From NCBI GenBank assembly GCA_964354655.1, contig CAYHAL010000004.1, forward strand, positions 2,841 to 66,840: 64,000 bases of DNA, read 5' to 3'. The notes beneath the pieces were generated by a model, which was not told the DNA's origin, searched no databases, and saw nothing but the letters and a program-made list of their open reading frames with translations. Made by a program: the position numbers and the translations under genes. This DNA comes from an uncultured Dehalococcoidales bacterium. GTDB taxonomy: Bacteria > Chloroflexota > Dehalococcoidia > Dehalococcoidales > E44-bin46. The stretch's first letter is position 1. Every line of letters starts with the position of its first letter. Positions 1-51,514 of the stretch are shown in pieces.

Positions 1-762
1 CAGTCATCCAATGTCTTCCGAATGAAACTACTAGATGCTGAGGTGCGCCCCGTATCCTCAGGCAGCCGCACGCTAAAGGACGCCATCAACGAAGCTATTC
101 GGGATTGGGTAACCAACGTCCACAATACCTATTACCTTCTTGGCTCAGTAGTTGGTCCCCACCCCTATCCCATGATTGTCCGCGACTTTCAATCAATAAT
201 CGGACAGGAAACGAAAGCACAGGTCATGACCATGTATCACCGCCTGCCTGACTACTTAGTCGCCTGTGTCGGCGGTGGTAGCAATGCCATGGGTCTGTTC
301 CACCCCTTCTTCCACGACAAAAGTGTCAAATTTATCGGTGTTGAAGCCGCCGGTAAAGGGCTGGAGACTAATCTCCACGCCGCCTCGTTACTAGCCGGGA
401 GAACTGGGGTATTACATGGGACGAAGTCATATCTGTTGCAGGACAAGAACGGCCAGATAATGGCAACCCACAGTATTGCCCCCGGATTGGATTACCCCGG
501 AGTAGGACCTGAGCACAGCTACTATAAAGCTATCGGTCGGGCTACTTATGTGGCAGTCACCGATGCCCAAGCCCTGGACGGCTTCAGGCTCCTGTGCGAC
601 ACCGAGGGGATAATTCCAGCGCTAGAGCCTGCCCATGCTATCTATTATGCAGCTAAATTAGCCGCCGATTCGCCTAGAAACCAGCTTATCGTTATCAATC
701 TTTCCGGTCGAGGCGATAAAGACCTAGACATTGTGGCTAAAGCCATAGGAATGGAATTATGA
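1..762 (+). CDS. trpB: tryptophan synthase beta chain (5' end cut by window edge)
   Basis: Frame 1 is open from base 1. Translation reads ..[12 protein letters not shown].., ..[14 protein letters not shown].., ..[12 protein letters not shown].., typical TrpB blocks. The stop overlaps the trpA start (ATGA). Confidence 0.93.
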
Positions 763-1541: not shown

Positions 1542-2230
1542 AAACTAATAAAAGAAGAACCAAATGGAACGAACAACGTACTTTCTTGACCAAAAGGACA
1601 TGCCAACTAATCTGTGAGTGCACAAAGTGTCTAGCCCCTTTGAAACACAGGCCTGCCCACAGGTTGAGCACCCAAGAGTGCTGGGGCTGTAAATGTGCAT
1701 AGTGACGTCCTCTCCGTGTTCCTCGCTCAGACACCTTTAGGGTATCCGTCTTGTACCGGGATACCTAATGTCTCATCTGCTCTCGGGAGTCTCTCCTGAA
1801 AATCCTTACGTCGTGACCTTGTCGCGACTAGTCGAATTGTATCATAGTGAGCAGAACCGCTATAGATTTCGCCCACCGCTAAACAAAACATCGAATTGTT
1901 CATGCTCAAGTGGCGAATACAAGCGTACGAGGGTGAACTTAGCCTCCGGCTTCCGAGCCGCTATTAACACCGCCTAAGAAAACGCTAACCTTGTACAGCT
2001 AAACAGCTTCAGCTTTGGCCTAGCTACAAGCGTTAGCTATAGGGGTTAGCTATGCCCAGGCCAAGGCTCTTTGGCTATACAATGTCCATCTTTTCATTAA
2101 ACGGGCGTCAAGTCAGCCCCTACAAGCTGCGTAACCAAGCTCACTTCGCGCTTTTGTACTTGCCATGGCGATGATAAGGTGATGGGGAACAGTTTATTGG
2201 AACATGTAGCGGTGTGATTCGAACGCCTAG

Positions 2231-2256
2231 TTTGCCGACATTTTGCCGACAAACTG
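2231..2256 (+). repeat. tandem direct repeat tttgccgaca x2, extending into the 14-mer ttgccgacaaactg (possible recombinase arm-type site)
   Basis: tttgccgaca occurs at 2231-2240 and 2242-2251. The 14-mer at 2243-2256 recurs with one mismatch at 51167-51180. Both copies lie exactly 113 nt before the tRNA-Thr breakpoint cores. Confidence 0.5.
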
Positions 2257-2369
2257 TTTAGCATCCGGTGGGACAGGGCGGGACTGCCAGATATAAACCG
2301 GTGTTTGATGCCGTACTAAACGCATCGTTATGCTATTTGGTGATACTAGGTGGGACATCGGGCTCAGAA

Positions 2370-2411
2370 TTCGTAAACCGCTGGGCGTCGGTTCGAATCC
2401 GACCGCTGGCT
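2370..2411 (+). pseudogene. tRNA-Thr(CGU) 3' half: anticodon loop, 3' anticodon stem, variable loop, T arm, 3' acceptor strand
   Basis: Sequence is ttcgtaa-accgc-tgggc-gtcgg-ttcgaat-ccgac-cgctggc-t, with a perfect T arm (GTCGG/CCGAC). There is no matching 5' half nearby. The exact complement partner is at 51294-51330 on the minus strand. Confidence 0.85.
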
Positions 2412-2495
2412 GTATATATCTAGGGTAAAGGACACGCTTGAGTGCCCCAGCATCTCACACTAACTATCTTGGGGTGGATACCGGCCAGATTTTGA

Positions 2496-2921
2496 CTACA
2501 GGCTTTCTCGTGCTCCGGATCGCCAAACCTTGCACACAATCCAGTACTCAAAACTTGATTCTCCGGTGAGTTCCTTGACTTTCTTACGAAAAGCGCGAGC
2601 CCATTTTGGTGATGTAAGCTCGCGATAGGTCTTCCATCTCTCCCTACCCGCAACCTTTCGAGTGCGGTCGGCTATCGCCTCGATTTCCCATTGTGCCCGA
2701 AAGCCCTCCTGCCAGCTCTTACAGCTTATTGCGACAACCCTGCAAGGAGGTGGCACAAGGGGATTAAGTCCGATGACATCAATATCGCTGTAAACACCGT
2801 CCTCCTTGCCTTTCCACTCTGGGTCACTTTCTGAGGGGCGATATTTTATATTAGTCCGAGTGAAATAACCACATAGGTTCAGGTAGTCGGCTGCTATTTG
2901 TTCAAGAATATCTTCTTTCAT
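2496..2921 (-). CDS. hypothetical protein (141 aa; weak resemblance to a PD-(D/E)xK-type nuclease core, D-I-D..S-C-K)
   Basis: Clean ORF in an AT-richer stretch next to the tRNA half. I recognise no family; the nuclease-like idea rests only on SDIDVIG...VAISCK spacing. Confidence 0.55.
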   Translation of the reverse strand: MKEDILEQIAADYLNLCGYFTRTNIKYRPSESDPEWKGKEDGVYSDIDVIGLNPLVPPPCRVVAISCKSWQEGFRAQWEIEAIADRTRKVAGRERWKTYRELTSPKWARAFRKKVKELTGESSFEYWIVCKVWRSGARESL

Positions 2922-10620: not shown

Positions 10621-10706
10621 GCCGAAGTGGCGGAATGGCAGACGCGCTACGTTCAGGGCGTAGTGCTCGTAAGGGCGTGGGAGTTCAAATCTCCCCTTCG
10701 GCACCA
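10621..10706 (+). tRNA. tRNA-Leu(CAG), CCA encoded
   Basis: Acceptor gccgaag/cttcggc, anticodon loop ttCAGgg, long variable arm, T arm gggag-ttcaaat-ctccc, terminal acca. Confidence 0.93.
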
Positions 10707-10714
10707 ATACTTAG

Positions 10715-10788
10715 GCGCTTGTAGCTCAGTAGGATAGAGCGCAGCCCTGCGGAGGCTGAGGTCGTGGGTTCAAGACCCGCCAAGCGCG
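10715..10788 (+). tRNA. tRNA-Arg(GCG)
   Basis: Acceptor gcgcttg/caagcgc, D arm gctc..gagc, anticodon stem cagcc/ggctg with loop ctGCGga, T arm gtggg-ttcaaga-cccgc. Confidence 0.88.
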
Positions 10789-10795
10789 CATTTAT

Positions 10796-10869
10796 GGGCG
10801 GTTAGCTCAGACGGTTAGAGCGTCTGTCTTACACACAGGAGGTCAGAGGTTCAAGTCCTCTACCGCCCA
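10796..10869 (+). tRNA. tRNA-Val(TAC)
   Basis: Acceptor gggcggt/accgccc, anticodon loop ctTACac, T arm agagg-ttcaagt-cctct. Confidence 0.92.
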
Positions 10870-11160
10870 CTATAGTGTACGGTAGACAGAACTCCCGCTT
10901 TTTCTTCAGATAGTCCTGTTGGCGGCAATGGCATAGTATAGGTTAGCACAACGTCGTCGCCCACTACTTTAACTTCCTTAATGAAGCTGCGGATAAAAGC
11001 TCTTCTCTCCGGTAGGGAACTCTCGTTGAGCAAGTTGCGTAGATCACTAACGTATTCTGCCACTACTTCAGGGCTAGCCAACTCAACTCTTCTTTCAGAC
11101 AATAAGTTCTCAATTTCGGCTTTTCTAATTCGCAACTTCTCTGGAGCCGTCCGTAATGTA
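10860..11160 (-). pseudogene. C-terminal remnant of a large serine recombinase-type integrase, stop codon inside tRNA-Val
   Basis: Only about 95 aa remain (..RRAFIRSFIKEVKVVGDDVVLTY..). This resembles the C-terminal tail of recombinase-family integrases. There is no catalytic N-terminal domain upstream. The last 3 codons and the stop overlap the tRNA-Val 3' acceptor strand. Confidence 0.45.
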
Positions 11161-16221: not shown

Positions 16222-17033
16222 GTGAGACGTGTTTGTGAGGTTCTTAGTGTCTCGGAGAGGCGGGCATGCAAAGTTCTGGGACAGTGTAGAACTACCCAGC
16301 GGTACAGTTCAGGTATTGGCAATGAGGAAGTTAAGTTGATGGCTCGGATTATTGAATTAGCGACTCAATATGGCAGGTATGGATATCGAAGGATAACAGC
16401 TCTGTTGAAGAGAGAGGGCTTCAAGGTAAATCACAAGAAGGTTGAACGAATCTGGAGGAGTGAAGGATTGAAGGTGCCGCAGAAACAGCCGAAGAGGAGA
16501 AAACTATGGCTTACTGACGACTCTTGTATCAGGCTCAGGCCTGAGTACAAAGACTATGTCTGGATCTACCATTTTGTGACTGCCAGGACATCTGATGGGA
16601 GAGCTTTTCGGATACTGACTATTATTGATGAATACACCCGCGAGTGTCTGGCAATACTGGTTGATCGTCGCATCAGCTCACAGGATGTTATCTATCGGAT
16701 CTTTAACCTGTTTGTCTTCAGAGGCATACCAGAGCATACCCGCTTGGATAATAGCCCTGAGTTTACGGGTAAAGCGATACGAATTTGGTTAAATCATCTT
16801 GGAGTAAAGACGTTATTCATAGAACCGGGGAGCCTCTGGGAGAACGGGTACATAGAGTTATTCAACGGAAAGCTAGAGATGAACTGCTTAACCGGGAGAT
16901 ATTCACTACACGGCTAAAGGCTCAGATATTGATAGATGAGTGGCGGAAGAAGTGCAATTAAGTCCGGCCGCATAGTGCTCTGCATTATCGACCACCTGCT
17001 CCAGAAGCAATCATACCGGTGACACTAACTTAA
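16222..17033 (+). pseudogene. IS3-family transposase OrfB (integrase core), frameshifted near the 3' end
   Basis: rve-type blocks ..IDEYTRECLA.., DNSPEF, PGSLWENGYIELFNGKL. The conserved tail ELLNREIF..RPHSALHYRPPAPE continues in another frame and contains a further stop. Confidence 0.8.
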
Positions 17034-20335: not shown

Positions 20336-20369
20336 TGTAAGGACAAAATTATTAAGGAGGATGAGCAAA

Positions 20370-21233
20370 ATGAGGCAAATAGCGAAAAAGACTATCCTCG
20401 ACTTTTTGGAAATGAAGCGGAGGGGAGACAAGATGACCTTTCTTACCGCTTACGACTTTCATATAGCGTCCATTCAGGAGCAAATAGGCGTCGATATGAT
20501 ACTGGTCGGGGATTCCGTAGGCATGGCAGTGTATGGCTATTCTGGGGGAACCATACCGGTGACGATGGATCAGATGATTTATCACGCGGAAGCAGTCCGC
20601 CGGGGTGCCCCCAACACATTTATCATTGGCGATATGCCCTTTCTCTCTTACCACGAATCGGCGGCCGACGCGGTGCATAATGCCGGCCGCTTTTATAAGG
20701 AGGCTGGCGTGGATGCCATCAAGCTAGAGGGAGGAAAAAGAGTAACCGCGCAGATACGGGCAATTGTTGATGCGGGGATGGTGGTGATGGGCCACATTGG
20801 GCTGACACCGCAAAGCACGGCAGCGCTCGGAGGCTTTAAAACTCAAGGAAACACCGCCGAGACAGCAATGGCACTGCTCGAGGATGCGAAAGCTGTTCAA
20901 GAGGCAGGTGCCGCTCTTACCTTGGTCGAGGCAGTACCAGCAGAGACGGGTAAGCTGATCACGAAAACCCTTCGTATACCGGTGATTGGCATCGGTGCCG
21001 GAGCTGACTGTGATGGGCAAGCTCAAGTATACACTGATGCGATTGGTCTCTTCGAACTCTTCACACCAAAATTCGTAAAGAAATATGCAAATGTAGCCGA
21101 AGTAATAAGAGAGGCCCTCAAAGAATGGAGTAAGGAGGTTCGTGAAGGTACGTTCCCGGCTTCAGAACATTGCTACAAGATGAAAGCGGGTGAGGCAGAA
21201 AAACTAGAGGAGATGGTAAAGCAGATCCTTTAG
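20370..21233 (+). CDS. panB: 3-methyl-2-oxobutanoate hydroxymethyltransferase (ketopantoate hydroxymethyltransferase), copy 1
   Basis: LTAYD..ILVGDS.GM.VYGY..T.PVTMD..HAEAVRRGA..GDMPF.SY..KLEGG blocks. The start is set at the second ATG (9 nt after SD aaggagg); the ATG at 20361 is an alternative. Confidence 0.9.
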   Translation: MRQIAKKTILDFLEMKRRGDKMTFLTAYDFHIASIQEQIGVDMILVGDSVGMAVYGYSGGTIPVTMDQMIYHAEAVRRGAPNTFIIGDMPFLSYHESAADAVHNAGRFYKEAGVDAIKLEGGKRVTAQIRAIVDAGMVVMGHIGLTPQSTAALGGFKTQGNTAETAMALLEDAKAVQEAGAALTLVEAVPAETGKLITKTLRIPVIGIGAGADCDGQAQVYTDAIGLFELFTPKFVKKYANVAEVIREALKEWSKEVREGTFPASEHCYKMKAGEAEKLEEMVKQIL

Positions 21234-28232: not shown

Positions 28233-29435
28233 ATGATGCCACGAACGTCTTTTAGGAAAGGGAAGTCTCTCGATGAGATGTATGAGATTGACAATGCTAA
28301 ATATAAAAGGTTCGATTCATCAAAAGAGGGTTTTGTAACGCTTACGGAAAAGAAGACTGGTAAACCTGTACATAGCATCCAAGACATCGTGAATTTTCTC
28401 ATCGGAGGCTTTGTGCCGGTTATGATGAAAGACATTCAGGGGAACACATCCGGCAAATCGCGGACAGACCACGCTCTTCAGTTTGGAGCCGCTGCAGTAA
28501 ATTACATCTTAGGCATGTACGGCGACCAGAATGCTAACGAGCAATTTCTAAAGTGGAATTCCTTGTTTGTACCAGAAGACCTAAATAAATGGCGGTCAGA
28601 GGCTGACCCGGACAAGCTTACCTCCCTCATAAAAGACGCTGCTAAGCTGTATGGCGCATGCCTTGTTGCCACTACGGAGCTTGACAGCAGATGGGTCTAT
28701 GAGGGAGATGTACATAAACGCTTCATCTTTGATGATGTTGAACAGCCGATGGAGAAAGGCGATACCCTTGTAATTCCCAACTCAATAAATAGAGCGGTAG
28801 TAATGGCTGTTGAAATGAATAAGGAGCTTATTTTACAATCACCCGGAGCAGGTGCAACTGCGGCTACCGATCTTGGATATGCCATGATGGGCTTCATATC
28901 TATATCCTTAGCCGAATGCATACGGGCTCTCGGTTATAACGCGATACCATGCATGAATGATACTGCTCTAAGCATACCGTTAGCGATAAGCGCTGGGCTT
29001 GGTCAACTTGGTAGACATGGTCTTCTAATAACACCTGAATATGGTTCTTGCATTCGCTTGTGCAAGGTTTTGACAGATATGCCCCTTAATGTCGATAAGC
29101 CTATTGATTTTAGACAAACAGAATTTTGCGACCAATGTTTGGTTTGTGCCAAAGAGTGTCCCGCCGATGCTATAAGCTTTAAAGATAGAACAATGAGCGG
29201 ATACAATGAGAACAATAATCCTGGTGTTAAGAAGTGGTATATACAAGCGGAAAAATGCCTCCAATTTTGGCTGGATAATGGCACGCCTTGTGCTGTCTGC
29301 ATAGCTGTATGCCCCTTTACGGAGGGCTTTGCCTCCACAGCAAGACAGTGCTTACAATGCGAGAGATGTGTTGCCCCTGATTGTCCACTACAATCGATGC
29401 CTATACAAGACCGAAGCAAGGACACCTATAAGTGA
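28233..29435 (+). CDS. reductive dehalogenase-superfamily protein (RdhA/QueG-like), cytoplasmic type without TAT signal
   Basis: EIDNAKYKRFD resembles the RdhA mature N-terminal block. Iron-sulfur motifs are CDQCLVCAKECP and C-x10-CAVCIAVCP, plus an extra CLQCERCVAPDCP. There is no RRxFxK leader, and no small membrane-anchor gene lies adjacent. Confidence 0.75.
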   Translation: MMPRTSFRKGKSLDEMYEIDNAKYKRFDSSKEGFVTLTEKKTGKPVHSIQDIVNFLIGGFVPVMMKDIQGNTSGKSRTDHALQFGAAAVNYILGMYGDQNANEQFLKWNSLFVPEDLNKWRSEADPDKLTSLIKDAAKLYGACLVATTELDSRWVYEGDVHKRFIFDDVEQPMEKGDTLVIPNSINRAVVMAVEMNKELILQSPGAGATAATDLGYAMMGFISISLAECIRALGYNAIPCMNDTALSIPLAISAGLGQLGRHGLLITPEYGSCIRLCKVLTDMPLNVDKPIDFRQTEFCDQCLVCAKECPADAISFKDRTMSGYNENNNPGVKKWYIQAEKCLQFWLDNGTPCAVCIAVCPFTEGFASTARQCLQCERCVAPDCPLQSMPIQDRSKDTYK

Positions 29436-29515: not shown

Positions 29516-30835
29516 ATGAAGACTGCTCAGATTGAAAATACAATACCAGATAATATAGAAATCAAATTTAGAGACGGGAAAATAATACACACTGAAACAG
29601 GTAGTTATACCGTTCTACCACCCGATACCATTATAACCGCGGAGAAGGTGTTTGAAATAATTGGTGTGGTTAAAGTAGAGCAAGTTAATCCTAACTTTAC
29701 CGATGGTGTTCCTATTTTTAGACTAAATGAAGCCCCAGTAAAAGCAAAATGTCACCGTCAGGCTTGCCAGTGGGCACTCCCGCCTACTCCCTTGAATAAT
29801 CCTCCCAAGGAAAGCTTTGGTAAGGGGATGACTGTACCGCAATCGAAGGCAAGCGCGATGATGGAAGCAGTAGAGAGATATTGCGGGCAAAGATTTCATC
29901 ACAGTAGGGTTATTAATGCAAATTATGAGGAAGTGCGGGACTACGCTGTTCACCCCTCTGAATTTAATTTGCCGACCTTGCCACCAAAGTGTGAAAACTG
30001 CGTGGAGAGGAATAGGGGATGTTTTCAAGAACTTCAAAACGCTTGCCAGGAATGGAGTTGGGGTTACTCATTGATAACTAAATCACCAGCTCTAATTCCC
30101 TCTGCATTGGTTTATTACCCCTATATATCGAAGAACAATCTATCGTTTATATTTAATGATACTGGCGGTCTCTCAGCAGGAAATACACTGGAGGAGGCAA
30201 TATTGCAAGGGATGGCCGAGGTAATTGAAAGAGATGCGCTATACTATGCTTTTAATCTGGGCAATCTAAGGAGCATGCCAATGGTCACCTTCAAAAATAC
30301 AAAAAATAGACATATTCAAAAATTTATTGCTGAGGTACTGCCCCCAGAGGGTATCTTTGCTTTCCATATACAGAACAAAAATCTTGACCTTAATATTGCT
30401 TCATTTAGTGCCTTTATATGCTACAAGATAGGGAATGAGCGTCATTACTTTGGTGGCTCAGGAACGAACCTTAATCCGGAGACAGCTTTACTAAGAGCAT
30501 TAACTGAGCTGGAGCAGCAGAAAGTTAGGCAAAAAGTCTTTGCTGAATTTGACCCTAATGACTTGGTGTCGCACAGTAGCCTAAAACAAGAGGATGTTAT
30601 TGCTCTTGAAGAAATCCCTAATCAATCCACAGGTGATATAAGAAAAGATGTAGAGTTATATTTAGATAGATTATTAATAAACGACACAAATGTTATCATA
30701 ATTAACTTAACTCACCCCGAGATAGGAATACCAGTTGTTCGGGTTGTAATACCAAAACTGATTTCATATTCGGGGAGCCCTATTAAAGAGTCGCTGTTTC
30801 TTGATACAATTAAGGCTTTTGGTGGGCAGTGCTAA
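29516..30835 (+). CDS. ycaO: YcaO-domain protein (ATP-dependent amide-activating enzyme family)
   Basis: SFGKGMTVPQSKASAMMEAVERYCG and GMAEVIERDA blocks of the YcaO ATP/Mg site; 439 aa. The gene is markedly AT-rich by eye. Confidence 0.85.
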   Translation: MKTAQIENTIPDNIEIKFRDGKIIHTETGSYTVLPPDTIITAEKVFEIIGVVKVEQVNPNFTDGVPIFRLNEAPVKAKCHRQACQWALPPTPLNNPPKESFGKGMTVPQSKASAMMEAVERYCGQRFHHSRVINANYEEVRDYAVHPSEFNLPTLPPKCENCVERNRGCFQELQNACQEWSWGYSLITKSPALIPSALVYYPYISKNNLSFIFNDTGGLSAGNTLEEAILQGMAEVIERDALYYAFNLGNLRSMPMVTFKNTKNRHIQKFIAEVLPPEGIFAFHIQNKNLDLNIASFSAFICYKIGNERHYFGGSGTNLNPETALLRALTELEQQKVRQKVFAEFDPNDLVSHSSLKQEDVIALEEIPNQSTGDIRKDVELYLDRLLINDTNVIIINLTHPEIGIPVVRVVIPKLISYSGSPIKESLFLDTIKAFGGQC

Positions 30836-43751: not shown

Positions 43752-44622
43752 TTATCTAAGGGTCAACCAGCGATGCGTGACAAGTTTGGTTGCCTCTTCG
43801 CGGGTCATCTGATGATAAAGCTCCCTTATTTTCTCCTTCGCCCAATAAAACCCCTTGAGACCGGGATACCTGTCCAGCAGCTCATCTACCCTCTGCCTTT
43901 TCTCCTCACTCAGCTTGTCCCTGCCAATCAAGAATACCTTCTTGGGTATCTGGGCCTTCCGCTTCCGGTATACATCTTGCTCGATTCTTCTGGCTTCGTC
44001 CATCCTTTTATTGGAATCAGCAATTACGTGGAATGGGTCAACGACTACCTTTGCTAGGGGAAACATCTTCTCTGCTAGCTTCCTTAAGGCCTCCTTCATG
44101 TCGATACAGACTTCTTTGACTTTATCTCCGGCTATCTTGGCCAGGAATTCCTCTAAGGTGGCTATACGATCGTCCCTAAGAATTCCCAACACCCTCCCCT
44201 GCTTAACCTCAGTTATAGTCTACACCATCTCCTGATGCCTGAAACTATGCTCGTCGATGCCGAGGTGCACATTGTCCTCTCCCTGTATGAAGCCCAGTGC
44301 TTCCTCGTCTATCTCCCTCTCCATAAGACGGCGTAGCGTGCCGTAGCCCACTCCCAGCTCCTTGGTCACCTGGCTGAAGCTTCTGTCTCTGAGCCGCCAC
44401 AATGCCTCAGTCTGTTTGGTAAGCCTCGACCGGTCGCGGACCAATTCCTTGCCCTCGGTGAAGGTCAAGGTAGGCCTTTTTGCCGTTCGTCCAAGTGTGA
44501 AGTACGTGTCGTGGGTCACACATACCATGCCCATACAGCTTGGCCGCGCCACAATAGGGGCATTTCTCCCGGCCTCCGTTAATTGTAATCTTCACCACCA
44601 CCCTCTCATCACTCCCCACCAC
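43752..44622 (-). pseudogene. ISL3-family transposase, multiply frameshifted and 3'-truncated
   Basis: There are three overlapping minus-strand ORF pieces. One is an N-terminal zinc finger (CPYCG), one an HTH piece (..FSQVTKELGVGYGTLRR..), and one a DDE piece with VDPFHVI. No single frame is intact. Confidence 0.75.
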
Positions 44623-48090: not shown

Positions 48091-48948
48091 TCATACTAAT
48101 TTTTTCTTCACTAATTCCATCATTTTCTCAAATTCGCCTTCGATCATTCCGTAGCAATGTTCTTTCTGAGGGAATTTTGATTCCTTAACCTCTTTAGCAT
48201 AGTCTTCAAAGGCCTTAACCATATTTTCAGCAAGGTTCGCATATTTTTTAACGAATTTTGGTGTAAACGCTTCAAATACGCCTAACATGTCGTGCATGAT
48301 AAGCACTTGTCCATCAACGTAAGGGCCAGCACCTATGCCATAAACTGGGATTTTCAGGTGCTCTGTAATAAACTTACCAACCTCGGGCGGTATTGCCTCC
48401 AGGAGTAAAAATGACGCCCCCGCCTCCTGAACGGCTCTGGCGTCAAGGATAAGTTCATATGCGCTTTCTGCCGTACGTCCCTGAGCTTTGAAACCACCAA
48501 GCTGCCCAGAACTCTGCGGTGTTAAACCAATATGACCGCAGACAACCATTCCCGCATCCACTATCGCCTTTATCATTTTTACAACGCGGCGTCCACCTTC
48601 GAGCTTGACGGCATCCACGCCAGCCTCCTTATAGAACCTTCCGGCATTTCTAACTGCATCTTCAGGTGTAGTTTGATAAGATAAGAATGGCATGTCACCC
48701 ATCACAAAGATGTTTGGAGCTCCCCGACGTACAGCTTCAGTATGTACTATGCATTGGTCCATAGTTACAGGCACAGTGCCTCCAGCGTATCCGTAAACTA
48801 CCATGCCCATGGAGTCTCCCACCAAAATCATCTCTATACCAGCCTGCTCCATCAATCGAGCGGTAGGATTATCATAACATGTTAGCCAGACAACCTTTTC
48901 ACCGCTCTTTTTCATATTTTGAAAATCTAGTACAGTTTTCTTTGCCAT
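48091..48948 (-). CDS. panB: 3-methyl-2-oxobutanoate hydroxymethyltransferase, copy 2
   Basis: 285 aa, collinear with copy 1 along the full length (same GDS.GM.VYGY, VTMDQ, AVRRGAPN, GDMPFLSY, KLEGG, TPKFVKKYAN blocks). Confidence 0.9.
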   Translation of the reverse strand: MAKKTVLDFQNMKKSGEKVVWLTCYDNPTARLMEQAGIEMILVGDSMGMVVYGYAGGTVPVTMDQCIVHTEAVRRGAPNIFVMGDMPFLSYQTTPEDAVRNAGRFYKEAGVDAVKLEGGRRVVKMIKAIVDAGMVVCGHIGLTPQSSGQLGGFKAQGRTAESAYELILDARAVQEAGASFLLLEAIPPEVGKFITEHLKIPVYGIGAGPYVDGQVLIMHDMLGVFEAFTPKFVKKYANLAENMVKAFEDYAKEVKESKFPQKEHCYGMIEGEFEKMMELVKKKLV

Positions 48949-50495: not shown

Positions 50496-50967
50496 ATGGC
50501 AAAGAAGAAAGTGCTTTGCCAGGAAAGGGGGATTCAGTTCGAGTTTGGTCCCCTAGAAAATCTAGTTGTAAAAGGAGATAAGCTAAAGCTCAAGCAACTG
50601 TTCCTCAACCTTCTGGATAATGCCGTCAGATATACTCCGAGCGGTGGAAGTATATCAGCTTCCGTTGTCAGGAAAGGAGAAACCGCGGTAGTGGCAATCA
50701 GAGATTCAGGTATTGGCATCCCCGAAGAGCATATACCGCATATCTTTGAGCGCTTCTATCGGGTGGATAAGGCACCGCTCCCGGGCTGAAGGAGGTGCAG
50801 GGCTGGGCCTCTCAATTCGTCAGCATATCGCTGAGATGCACAGCGGTAGAATTGAAGTTGAAAGCCAGGTAGGGAGAGGGAGTACCTTTTCAGTAATACT
50901 ACCCATTCTTCAACAGGGAGGTTTCCGTTCTCATACTGGGATAATCACGTCCAGCAGTCAAACCTAA
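50496..50967 (+). pseudogene. sensor histidine kinase fragment (HATPase_c only), frameshifted
   Basis: N box LFLNLLDNAVRYTP, G1 IRDSGIGIP, then [10 protein letters not shown]. One extra base near 50775 shifts the frame to [27 protein letters not shown]. The HisKA and sensor parts are missing. Confidence 0.8.
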
Positions 50968-51058: not shown

Positions 51059-51166
51059 ACGGTTGCAATGTCTCAGGCCTTTACCTCCTAATCAGGGAAT
51101 AGCCGGCACGGCCCACACCCGTATAGGCTACCACACGGCAGGCGATTGATAAAGGGGGCACAAAAG

Positions 51167-51180
51167 TTGGCGACAAACTG
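51167..51180 (+). repeat. 14-mer ttggcgacaaactg, partner of 2243-2256
   Basis: 13/14 identical to the copy at 2243-2256 and at the identical distance (113 nt) from the breakpoint core. The 10-mer cacaaaagtt also repeats at 51159-51168 and 51240-51249. Confidence 0.5.
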
Positions 51181-51293
51181 AAAAGGACAGGATTTCACCA
51201 AAAGGCACTTTAGCCTCAAAACGGGATTTTAGCAACTGACACAAAAGTTCTATTTTGTATCTAACAGCACCCAGCAGCATACCTGCCCTAGAA

Positions 51294-51330
51294 TTACGAA
51301 ACCGCTGCTCTACCTCTGAGCTACGCTGGC
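51294..51330 (-). pseudogene. tRNA-Thr(CGU) 5' half: acceptor 5' strand, D arm, 5' anticodon stem, anticodon loop
   Basis: Minus strand reads gccagcg-ta-gctc-agaggta-gagc-a-gcggt-ttcgtaa, followed by unrelated sequence. It pairs perfectly (7/7 acceptor, 5/5 anticodon stem) with the 3' half at 2370-2411. Confidence 0.85.
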
Positions 51331-51338
51331 TTTACCTA

Positions 51339-51347
51339 AGTATAGCA
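51339..51347 (-). promoter_or_regulatory. extended -10 element TGcTATACT upstream of the tRNA-Thr 5' half
   Basis: Read on the minus strand, ending 8 nt before the first tRNA base. The -35 is poor. Confidence 0.3.
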
Positions 51348-51514
51348 CAAAGTTAAGTCGCCGATGAACCATTACCTAATACCTCGCCGGCTACCTCATA
51401 ATTGACGCTTAGATTGGCTTATGATAGTATTTTTAAAATACTTTGGCTATGGCTTAGTGGGTGGCTATGTAAGGCTATACTTTTTTGCAATAATCCTACT
51501 CAGGGGGAAGCACT

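Follow-up and report, generated by a model that had tools for sequence, protein, structure and literature searches.

Related flanks of the separated tRNA-Thr(CGU) halves in an uncultured Dehalococcoidales bacterium are probable att-site relics of two sister lineages of integrase elements

The two flanks which adjoin the separated halves of a tRNA-Thr(CGU) gene in the DNA analysed here, a stretch of 64,000 nucleotides (64 kb, hereafter called the window), are very probably homologous attP-derived arms from two sister lineages of integrase elements that insert into the anticodon loop of this tRNA gene. The arms are homologous to each other, they recur at the same loop in numerous metagenome contigs, tyrosine integrases adjoin them, and complete elements of the same kind are found elsewhere. 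Both sites in the window are orphan relics and not the ends of a current element, since the 64 kb contain no intact tRNA-Thr gene and the two fragments lie on opposite strands. The first-pass annotation of this region, which regarded the flanks as related and the breakpoints as a defined recombination site, was right in kind, the site being one of a tyrosine recombinase, and wrong in detail, as the flanks do not belong together as a pair of arms of a single site.

The features of the window on which the analysis is based are the following.

1542..2230, no strand: non-coding stretch from the trpA stop codon to the A arm, with a synteny break at 1541/1542
2231..2256, plus strand: tandem repeat TTTGCCGACA / TTTTGCCGACA followed by AACTG, which contains the 14-mer at 2243-2256; candidate arm-type integrase-binding sites
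2231..2369, plus strand: A arm, to which the tRNA 3' half is joined; probable P-type (element-side) arm of an attP-derived site (nhmmer)
2370..2376, plus strand: core TTCGTAA, the 7-nt anticodon loop of tRNA-Thr(CGU) and presumed strand-exchange (overlap) region
2377..2411, plus strand: tRNA-Thr(CGU) 3' half, from reconstruction against the intact genes of relatives
2409..2530, minus strand: C-terminal pseudogene remnant of a tyrosine integrase (catalytic region), frameshifted and abutting the tRNA half (tblastn)
51164..51293, plus strand: B arm, to which the tRNA 5' half is joined and which contains the 14-mer at 51167-51180; probable element-side arm of an attP-derived site (nhmmer)
51294..51300, minus strand: core, TTCGTAA on the minus strand (TTACGAA on the plus strand being its reverse complement)
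51301..51330, minus strand: tRNA-Thr(CGU) 5' half at its native locus, upstream of ribF
51339-51344, minus strand: TATACT, putative -10-like box of a promoter predicted from the sequence

The host is an uncultured member of the Dehalococcoidia/Dehalococcoidales, the nearest genome found being the MAG CP070810.1, the RibF of which is 89% identical. The anticodon loop together with the attached tRNA half occupies 2370-2411 on the plus strand (3' side) and 51330-51294 on the minus strand (5' side). The 3' half comprises the 3' strand of the anticodon stem, the variable loop, the T arm, the 3' strand of the acceptor and the discriminator, with CCA not encoded. Joined together, the halves form a tRNA-Thr(CGU) that hardly differs from the intact gene found in six relatives, and neither ARAGORN nor Rfam identified an intact tRNA-Thr in the 64-kb window. 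The intact gene of the six relatives is located upstream of ribF, on the same ribF side as the 5' half of the window, at a distance of approximately 200-460 nt (directly upstream) in four of them and of 4-6.6 kb in L021 and L023. The sequence upstream of these intact genes is of the same CTATACT...AAA type as in the window, in which TATACT is the putative native promoter of the 5' half. In L024, an integrase remnant adjoins the 3' end of the intact tRNA-Thr(CGU).

Both junctions are also found in other assemblies. Junction A is present in independent assemblies, the JGI contig L008 and the Logan contigs L009/L010. Junction B is present in the close relative L047, which is 96% identical over 51169-51368 and has ribF next to this stretch, and in the more distant L025 (RibF 69% identical), whose closer relatives keep the intact gene. 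Logan contigs break at 2231-2260 and at 51301. A second copy or heterogeneity of the population may be the cause of these breaks, but 30-mers common to the many arm- and tRNA-bearing elements of the community explain them equally well.

The 14-mers TTGCCGACAAACTG (2243-2256) and TTGGCGACAAACTG (51167-51180), on which the first-pass annotation had built, were recovered together with both 7-nt cores. They differ from each other at one base, and with one mismatch allowed the motif occurs at these two sites only within the window. The distance between motif and core, claimed to be equal, is exactly 113 nt at both junctions. Without gaps, the two 113-nt stretches are identical at 48 positions (42%), for which about 47 identities (approximately 42%) had been claimed. 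Dinucleotide shuffles of the same stretches gave 27.9 ± 4.5 identities, none of 5000 reaching 48, and when 113-nt segments of the 64 kb are paired at random, 48 identities are reached at a frequency of 2e-4. The alignment with shuffling statistics that had been proposed as a check gave the same result, with z = 4.5 for the global alignment of the 139-nt arms (none of 2000 shuffles reaching the observed score) and z = 3.3 for the local alignment of 2200-2376 with 51130-51300 (21/2000). The short direct repeats on the two sides, previously likened to recombinase arm sites, are both present; tttgccgaca x2 is half of a tandem motif found throughout the arm family, but cacaaaagtt x2, although present in the window, is not conserved across the family.

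The resemblance extends along the full length of the flanks. The A profile, constructed from 41 metagenome A arms including that of the window itself, matched 2231-2369 with an E-value of 1.9e-35 (nhmmer), and the B profile, from 63 B arms likewise including that of the window, matched 51164-51293 with an E-value of 2.8e-32. The B profile also matched the A arm of the window (2232-2369, E 3.5e-6). The B arms of L025 and L047 are orthologous to the B arm of the window.

Because L025 carries the same flank-core-5'-half junction as the window, a metagenome scan was undertaken with one degenerate pattern which fits either junction type and never an intact tRNA. In at least 120 metagenome contigs a fragment of tRNA-Thr(CGU) is preceded, directly at its anticodon loop, by a flank of approximately 135 nt. 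The breakpoints, as had been proposed, reflect a defined site-specific recombination and not random breakage. Among the matches listed there are 45 A-type junctions (flank-AGAA-TTCGTAA-3' half) and 75 B-type junctions (flank-AGAA-TTACGAA-reverse complement of the 5' half), and the tRNA identity starts at the 7-nt loop in all 120 of them. The core TTCGTAA was found in 45/45 of the A-type and 72/75 of the B-type junctions listed, the central triplet being altered in the remaining three; the pattern admitted only eight 7-mers, TT[AC][CG][GT]AA, at this position, and the uniformity of the core is thus weak evidence of constraint.

For each junction type the flanks form a conserved family of approximately 135 nt (arms of approximately 130-140 bp), and homology between loci extends from the outer edge of the arm (2229-2231 and 51164-51169 in the window) to the end of the tRNA gene. 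The two families are themselves related: the A profile matched B arms (E down to 8.8e-11) and the B profile A arms (E down to 4.4e-10) over the full 140 positions. Arms of the two families are 38-64% identical, some B arms being 64% identical to the A arm of the window, and no difference in base composition was found between the families. A 9-mer, TTGSCNNNA, ends 118 nt from the core in 22/44 A arms and 30/69 B arms, and 129 nt from the core in 18/44 and 25/69, respectively. The 113-nt spacing is identical at the two junctions of the window because the 14-mer is part of these tandem 9-mers at a fixed distance from the core; judged from the sequences compared, the equal spacing is a conserved design feature and no coincidence of this genome. 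The tandem 9-mers, which are one helical turn apart, are most likely arm-type binding sites for the integrase, and GGNAC-type repeats nearer to the core may be further binding sites for the integrase, perhaps for an accessory protein. L119 and L077 contain arrays of arm remnants. When the ORFs from approximately 120 loci were clustered, no recurrent gene family was found on the arm side of the junctions, and a search of viral contigs with the motif-N113-core pattern gave 0 matches.

A recombinase beside the same motifs, for which a search had been recommended, was found in related loci with jackhmmer and tblastn. In at least 16 loci, of both types, a tyrosine integrase or a C-terminal remnant of one lies approximately 20-120 nt from the tRNA half, always with the same relative strand. 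The integrase (PF00589) beside the tRNA half is full-length or partial in L148, L104, L076 and L084, and at least 12 further loci have a remnant in this place. The integrases match the Pfam families PF00589, PF14659 and PF22022, and no separate arm-binding domain was reported by Pfam at E <= 0.001. Integrases of the A and the B lineage were 61% identical over 178 residues in the one pair compared. The 7-bp overlap coinciding with the anticodon loop, the repeated sites at a fixed distance in the arm and the integrase neighbours all point to a tyrosine recombinase, one of the possibilities suggested earlier.

In the window itself, the 3' half abuts an integrase remnant that can be followed in two parts. 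The first, RFGDPEHEKACSQNLAGIHPKIVS (2530-2459), aligns with RFHDLRHTFASLMLLAGIHPKVVS of the L084 integrase, and the second, EMLGHSSVSFTLDIYS (2456-2409), aligns with EALGHASVAFTMDVYS of the L148 integrase, with 11/16 residues identical. The best E-value of the remnant, 2e-8, is helped by conserved tRNA sequence, the independent evidence amounting to approximately 40 residues. There is no full integrase gene in the 64-kb window.

In L104 and L084 a complete attP-type unit was found, consisting of one arm, the core, one tRNA half and an integrase gene. L148 contains a complete element. It begins with an intact tRNA-Thr(CGU), followed by genes for an integrase of 432 aa, a D5/DUF5906 primase-like protein and an HTH_17 protein of the excisionase type, and it ends with arm B, the core and the 5' half; an exact direct repeat of 41 bp flanks it, the copies being 9.7 kb apart. 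The same layout is found in L054 (5.1 kb) and L151 (3.0 kb), and all three elements have an intact tRNA-Thr at one end and a single arm-bearing fragment at the other. In L057 and L086 an A-type junction (arm A, core, 3' half) is preceded by an intact tRNA-Thr at a distance of approximately 4.2 kb. These examples of complete elements of the A lineage are weaker than those of the B lineage, since L057 and L086 lack an integrase and the sequence of their displaced 3' half does not agree with that of the intact gene. An intact tRNA and a co-oriented displaced fragment thus bound the element in L148, L054 and L151, and less cleanly in L057/L086, an arrangement not present in the window. In L166, an IMG/VR contig, a gene for a major head protein (phrog_10, E 1.5e-47) lies approximately 1.7 kb from the B arm.

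Tyrosine integrases exchange strands within a short overlap, and the partial tRNA copy carried by an element rebuilds the target gene while the far end of the island is recognised by the displaced fragment. The elements described here would be small prophage- or satellite-like islands with tyrosine integrases, common in genomes of the Dehalococcoidia type, and the 7-bp anticodon loop of tRNA-Thr(CGU) would be the place of recombination for both lineages. A free or tandem unit would consist of the arm, the core, one tRNA half and the 3' end of the integrase gene. An element of the A lineage would bring the tRNA 3' half, in the usual orientation; once it is integrated, the far end of the island would consist of arm A and the core, followed by the 3' half that was displaced. 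An element of the B lineage would bring the 5' half, in the rare reversed orientation, and the displaced half, next to the core and arm B, would then be the 5' one. Apart from the three anticodon bases, the anticodon stem-loop (CAGCGGT-TTCGTAA-ACCGCTG) is a palindrome, and for this reason the two junction types look alike: on the arm-to-core strand both read arm, TTNNNAA, ACCGCTG. From the palindrome we infer that one kind of arm and integrase could be adapted to either orientation. The two lineages may then have diverged by a change of the central triplet of the overlap (CGT or ACG), which would reverse the direction of integration.

As in other att sites, identity in the window starts at a defined sublocation, the anticodon loop, and the two cores are exact 7-bp copies, here inverted, with the tRNA fragments approximately 49 kb apart on opposite strands. 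The native upstream part, that is ribF, the promoter and the 5' half, is joined to arm B, and the 3' half with the old integrase remnant is joined to arm A. Between the junctions are ordinary metabolic genes, three tRNAs and, as the only trace of recombinases in the 49-kb segment, IS3-like and ISL3 fragments (16222-16917 and 43752-44552), far from both junctions. No homology of the window to the other loci was found beyond the arms, and the ORFs adjoining the arms had no Pfam or PHROG matches, so that the arm-adjacent DNA of the window is not recognisable as element DNA. In relatives whose TrpA is 89-95% identical, the gene immediately after trpA encodes a PALP protein of 453 aa, and the genes for HtrA and IleRS come next; the window has none of the three. 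The genes on the side of the 3' half (ORF141, zf, RRM) were beside an intact tRNA and ribF in none of L020-L034, and L048 alone shares zf and RRM beside an A-type junction.

Simple integration of an A element, a B element or both would leave all cores co-oriented and always one intact tRNA, and the opposite orientation in the window hence requires at least one further rearrangement. For the order of events that left the halves inverted, as we infer it, two-step histories such as a tandem A + B integration with subsequent inversion and deletion would fit equally well as a one-step inversion. The latter would be a single site-specific inversion of approximately 49 kb, in which the native tRNA-Thr loop recombined with an already existing site that had two arms, flank A on one side of the core and the reverse complement of flank B on the other. 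This two-armed site could have been a symmetric attP or a hybrid from recombination of A-type with B-type sites; the integrase could flip the segment back, restoring the tRNA. Such an inversion would produce both junctions in one event between exact inverted cores, as a tyrosine recombinase requires. Reversal of 2377-51293 indeed yields a near-identical tRNA-Thr(CGU) at the native position upstream of ribF, and the integrase remnant adjoins the 3' half of the window as one does beside the intact tRNA of L024. We nevertheless consider this history unlikely. The 23-mer expected of the two-armed site, GCTCAGAATTCGTAATTCTAGGG, had 0 matches in the metagenome collection, although the species is present there (L008), and an A arm followed by an inverted B arm was found in no locus among approximately 120 searched with the arm profiles. 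Every informative locus has as its site a single arm with a tRNA half and an integrase, the window is without a recombinase gene, and the synteny break after trpA (1541/1542) implies that more than one rearrangement has occurred here anyway. There is also a stronger reading, in which the sole tRNA-Thr(CGU) of this genome was truly split by the integrase acting on A- and B-type sites, or on the tRNA and a hybrid two-armed site, in opposite orientation, with the junctions staying competent so that the 49 kb can be flipped back and the tRNA rebuilt. This would be a mobile-element-derived inversion switching a tRNA gene off and on, and it appears quite improbable. Invertible switches of the Hin/Gin, Fim and shufflon kind occur in both orientations within populations and have a dedicated recombinase beside the inverted repeats; here the other-orientation junction had 0 matches in the metagenome collection, and no recombinase gene was found in the window. 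A modester version, in which the arm families are one integrase/att system re-oriented by the three anticodon bases of the overlap alone, may hold.

The absence of the un-inverted site from the metagenome collection, together with the single arm per unit (L104, L084) and per element (L148, L054, L151), also speaks against the earlier proposal of two symmetric arms of one attP. Its alternative, a single element with terminal inverted repeats and a duplication of 7 bp, is not supported by the complete elements either, which are one-armed and bounded by a tRNA repeat of 37-41 bp. The same repeat and the single arm argue against a DDE-type transposon whose terminal inverted repeats entered the anticodon loop with a 7-bp target duplication and underwent intramolecular transposition or inversion thereafter, a reading that retains hardly any credibility. 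Intramolecular transposition yields an inverted orientation of the duplicated target sequence, with which the inverted 7-mers of the window agree, and both ends have several repeated sub-terminal motifs and end with AGAA beside the duplicated 7 bp. No transposase is associated with the arms, however, the only recurrent neighbour being the tyrosine integrase, and the IS fragments of the window are distant from both junctions. A functional split tRNA, in which the 5' half has the reverse complement of flank B as its trailer, this trailer pairs with the flank A leader and the halves are joined as in Nanoarchaeum, is likewise extremely unlikely. As the flanks are direct homologues, trailer and leader are complementary, the pair in the window having 61 Watson-Crick and 21 G.U pairs over 127 positions, with 6 transitions of the A.C type; the native promoter is retained upstream of the 5' half, and the window is without an intact gene. 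The complementarity is not specific to the partner, however, as the A arm of the window is identical with the B arm of L119 at 81/127 positions and with its own at 61/127, and transitions compatible with wobble pairing are nearly balanced by incompatible ones (16.0 vs 13.5, over 3150 A x B pairs). The junction, as predicted from sequence, is a 3x3 internal loop and not a bulge-helix-bulge, Rfam has no intron or other RNA family there, and integrase adjacency and complete elements account for the arms without an RNA role. Known RNAs at the junctions, group I introns among them, were rejected as well: the Rfam search was blank both at the gathering threshold and at E <= 10, and wherever the duplicated 7-mer is placed, a 5' exon with a final U is never combined with a terminal G.

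With the flanks read as arms of two sister element lineages, an apparent split tRNA with related flanks becomes an ordinary feature, the att-site scars of integrase-driven elements. This genome region may have lost its tRNA-Thr(CGU), or the gene may be split in this genome. Although an integrase att site in a tRNA gene is a well-known kind of feature, the elements represent an abundant and apparently undescribed family targeting tRNA-Thr(CGU) in uncultured Dehalococcoidia, with a capsid gene on one IMG/VR contig. A full-text literature search found neither these uncultured Dehalococcoidia/Dehalococcoidales hosts nor this arm family, which is a weak negative. The two junction types offer a clean natural pair of sister att sites in the same anticodon loop in opposite orientations, usable for testing the role of the overlap in determining the direction of integration. 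Annotators should be aware that tRNA fragments at such scars mimic a split gene.

The split tRNAs of Nanoarchaeum equitans and other archaea resemble the window in that the halves are encoded apart, the break lies in the anticodon loop, and leader and trailer are complementary. They differ in that the host here is a bacterium, neither a bulge-helix-bulge nor partner-specific complementarity is present, and the flanks are explained as DNA recombination sites. In the tRNA-dependent lysogeny of mycobacteriophages, a tyrosine integrase acts on an attP without tRNA sequence, and a tRNA gene comes separately with the phage (PMC10865867). The window is similar in having a short common core in a tRNA gene and in that its junctions alone do not rebuild the tRNA; in contrast to that system, the related elements L148, L054 and L151 carry a tRNA half and rebuild the gene, and no replacement tRNA-Thr was seen in the window.

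A 5'-fragment-displacing element was reportedly described in Mesorhizobium by Zhao and Williams in 2002. Islands in tRNA genes restore their target and leave a displaced fragment, and in the Islander set 3760 islands have a 3' fragment and 159 a 5' fragment (159/3919), with an anticodon-centred attP in 2083 (PMC4383910). The elements described here are most like the class 'A' islands of that set: the crossover lies in the 7-nt anticodon loop flanked by the symmetric stem, the element holds a partial tRNA copy, an integrase gene adjoins the att site, a displaced tRNA fragment lies at the far end of the island, and arm remnants form arrays (L119, L077). Unlike in that class, neither fragment of the window has an intact partner or an integrase of its own, and as the fragments are oppositely oriented an Islander-type search, with its orientation filter (PMC4383910), would reject them. 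The B lineage (L148, L054, L151 and junction B) resembles the 5'-fragment islands (PMC4383910) in that its 5' half lies beside the integrase and the host 5' half is displaced together with its promoter, and it differs from the others of that kind in having a homologous sister of the usual orientation at the same anticodon loop.

In the window, synteny with relatives is broken at 1541/1542, immediately past the trpA stop codon. In relatives whose TrpA is 89-95 % identical, the next genes are a 453-aa PALP gene, HtrA, IleRS, Jag, YidC and RnpA, a stretch which in those genomes is the origin-proximal region. In the window, trpA is instead separated by 690 non-coding nt from the A arm, the flank joined to the 3' half of tRNA-Thr(CGU). 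The B arm, the homologous flank joined to the 5' half, lies 200 nt from a histidine-kinase gene fragment, which is frameshifted near 50713-50789. This fragment and the features identified between the two junctions are as follows (window positions).

10621-10870 (+), tight cluster of tRNA-Leu(CAG), tRNA-Arg(GCG) and tRNA-Val(UAC), within the inter-junction segment
16222-16917 (+), IS remnant, IS3-type transposase fragment (HTH_21 and rve)
20361-21233 (+), panB (ketopantoate hydroxymethyltransferase), paralogue 1
28233-29435 (+), reductive-dehalogenase-like protein
29516-30835 (+), adjoining YcaO-domain protein
43752-44552 (-), IS remnant, two ORFs with ISL3 HTH and DDE domains
48091-48948 (-), panB (ketopantoate hydroxymethyltransferase), paralogue 2
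50496-50967 (+), histidine-kinase gene fragment, HATPase_c domain only, N-terminal part absent

Both panB paralogues are inside the 49-kb segment between the junctions, and they have a 57-nt stretch in common with 86 % identity. The reductive-dehalogenase-like protein was assigned on the basis of a weak PF13486 match plus 4Fe-4S domains.

The Logan contigs (L001-L019, from up to seven sequencing runs) have three common break points, at window positions 2231-2260, 51058 and 51301. At the first lies the 30-mer that is best conserved among A arms, and the last is the 30-nt 5' half of the tRNA.

Full or partial B-like arms were also found as sets, each set in one orientation and spanning a few kb, at two further loci.

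L119: 427-560, 751-885, 2942-3030 and 5015-5085
L077: 19-158 and 1130-1267

A tRNA half is attached to only one arm in these sets, which look like arrays of decayed attachment sites, with repeated integrations as their source.

The B-arm profile also matched the reverse complement of B arms (E 6e-5 to 1e-3, profile positions ~36-134; for example L143:5864-5962 and L157:11454-11540), and the B arms therefore have internal dyad symmetry. Small A/T-rich palindromes, such as ACAAAAGTTCTATTTTGT, are present inside them. The tandem motif of the arms was also found, as TTGCCAACATTTTGCCAAA, approximately 20 nt past an intact tRNA-Thr in L057:620-660 and L086:1550-1590, where the attachment site may have an arm-type site on its other (P') side.

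Among the matches listed, the central triplet of the 7-nt core was altered in three B-type junctions, L136, L140 (core TTAGGAA) and L071 (core TTCCGAA), at which the anticodon of the displaced 5' half would become CCU or CGG. No core variation was seen among the A-type junctions listed, a constancy which carries little weight because the scan pattern, TT[AC][CG][GT]AA, admitted just eight 7-mers. The second B-like arm of the L136 locus (577-682 (-) and ~70 nt downstream) has the 7-nt loop CTTCGGA at its joint. The tRNA half there is the 5' half of a tRNA different from tRNA-Thr(CGU), apparently tRNA-Arg(UCG), suggesting that other anticodon loops are also targeted by this arm/integrase family.
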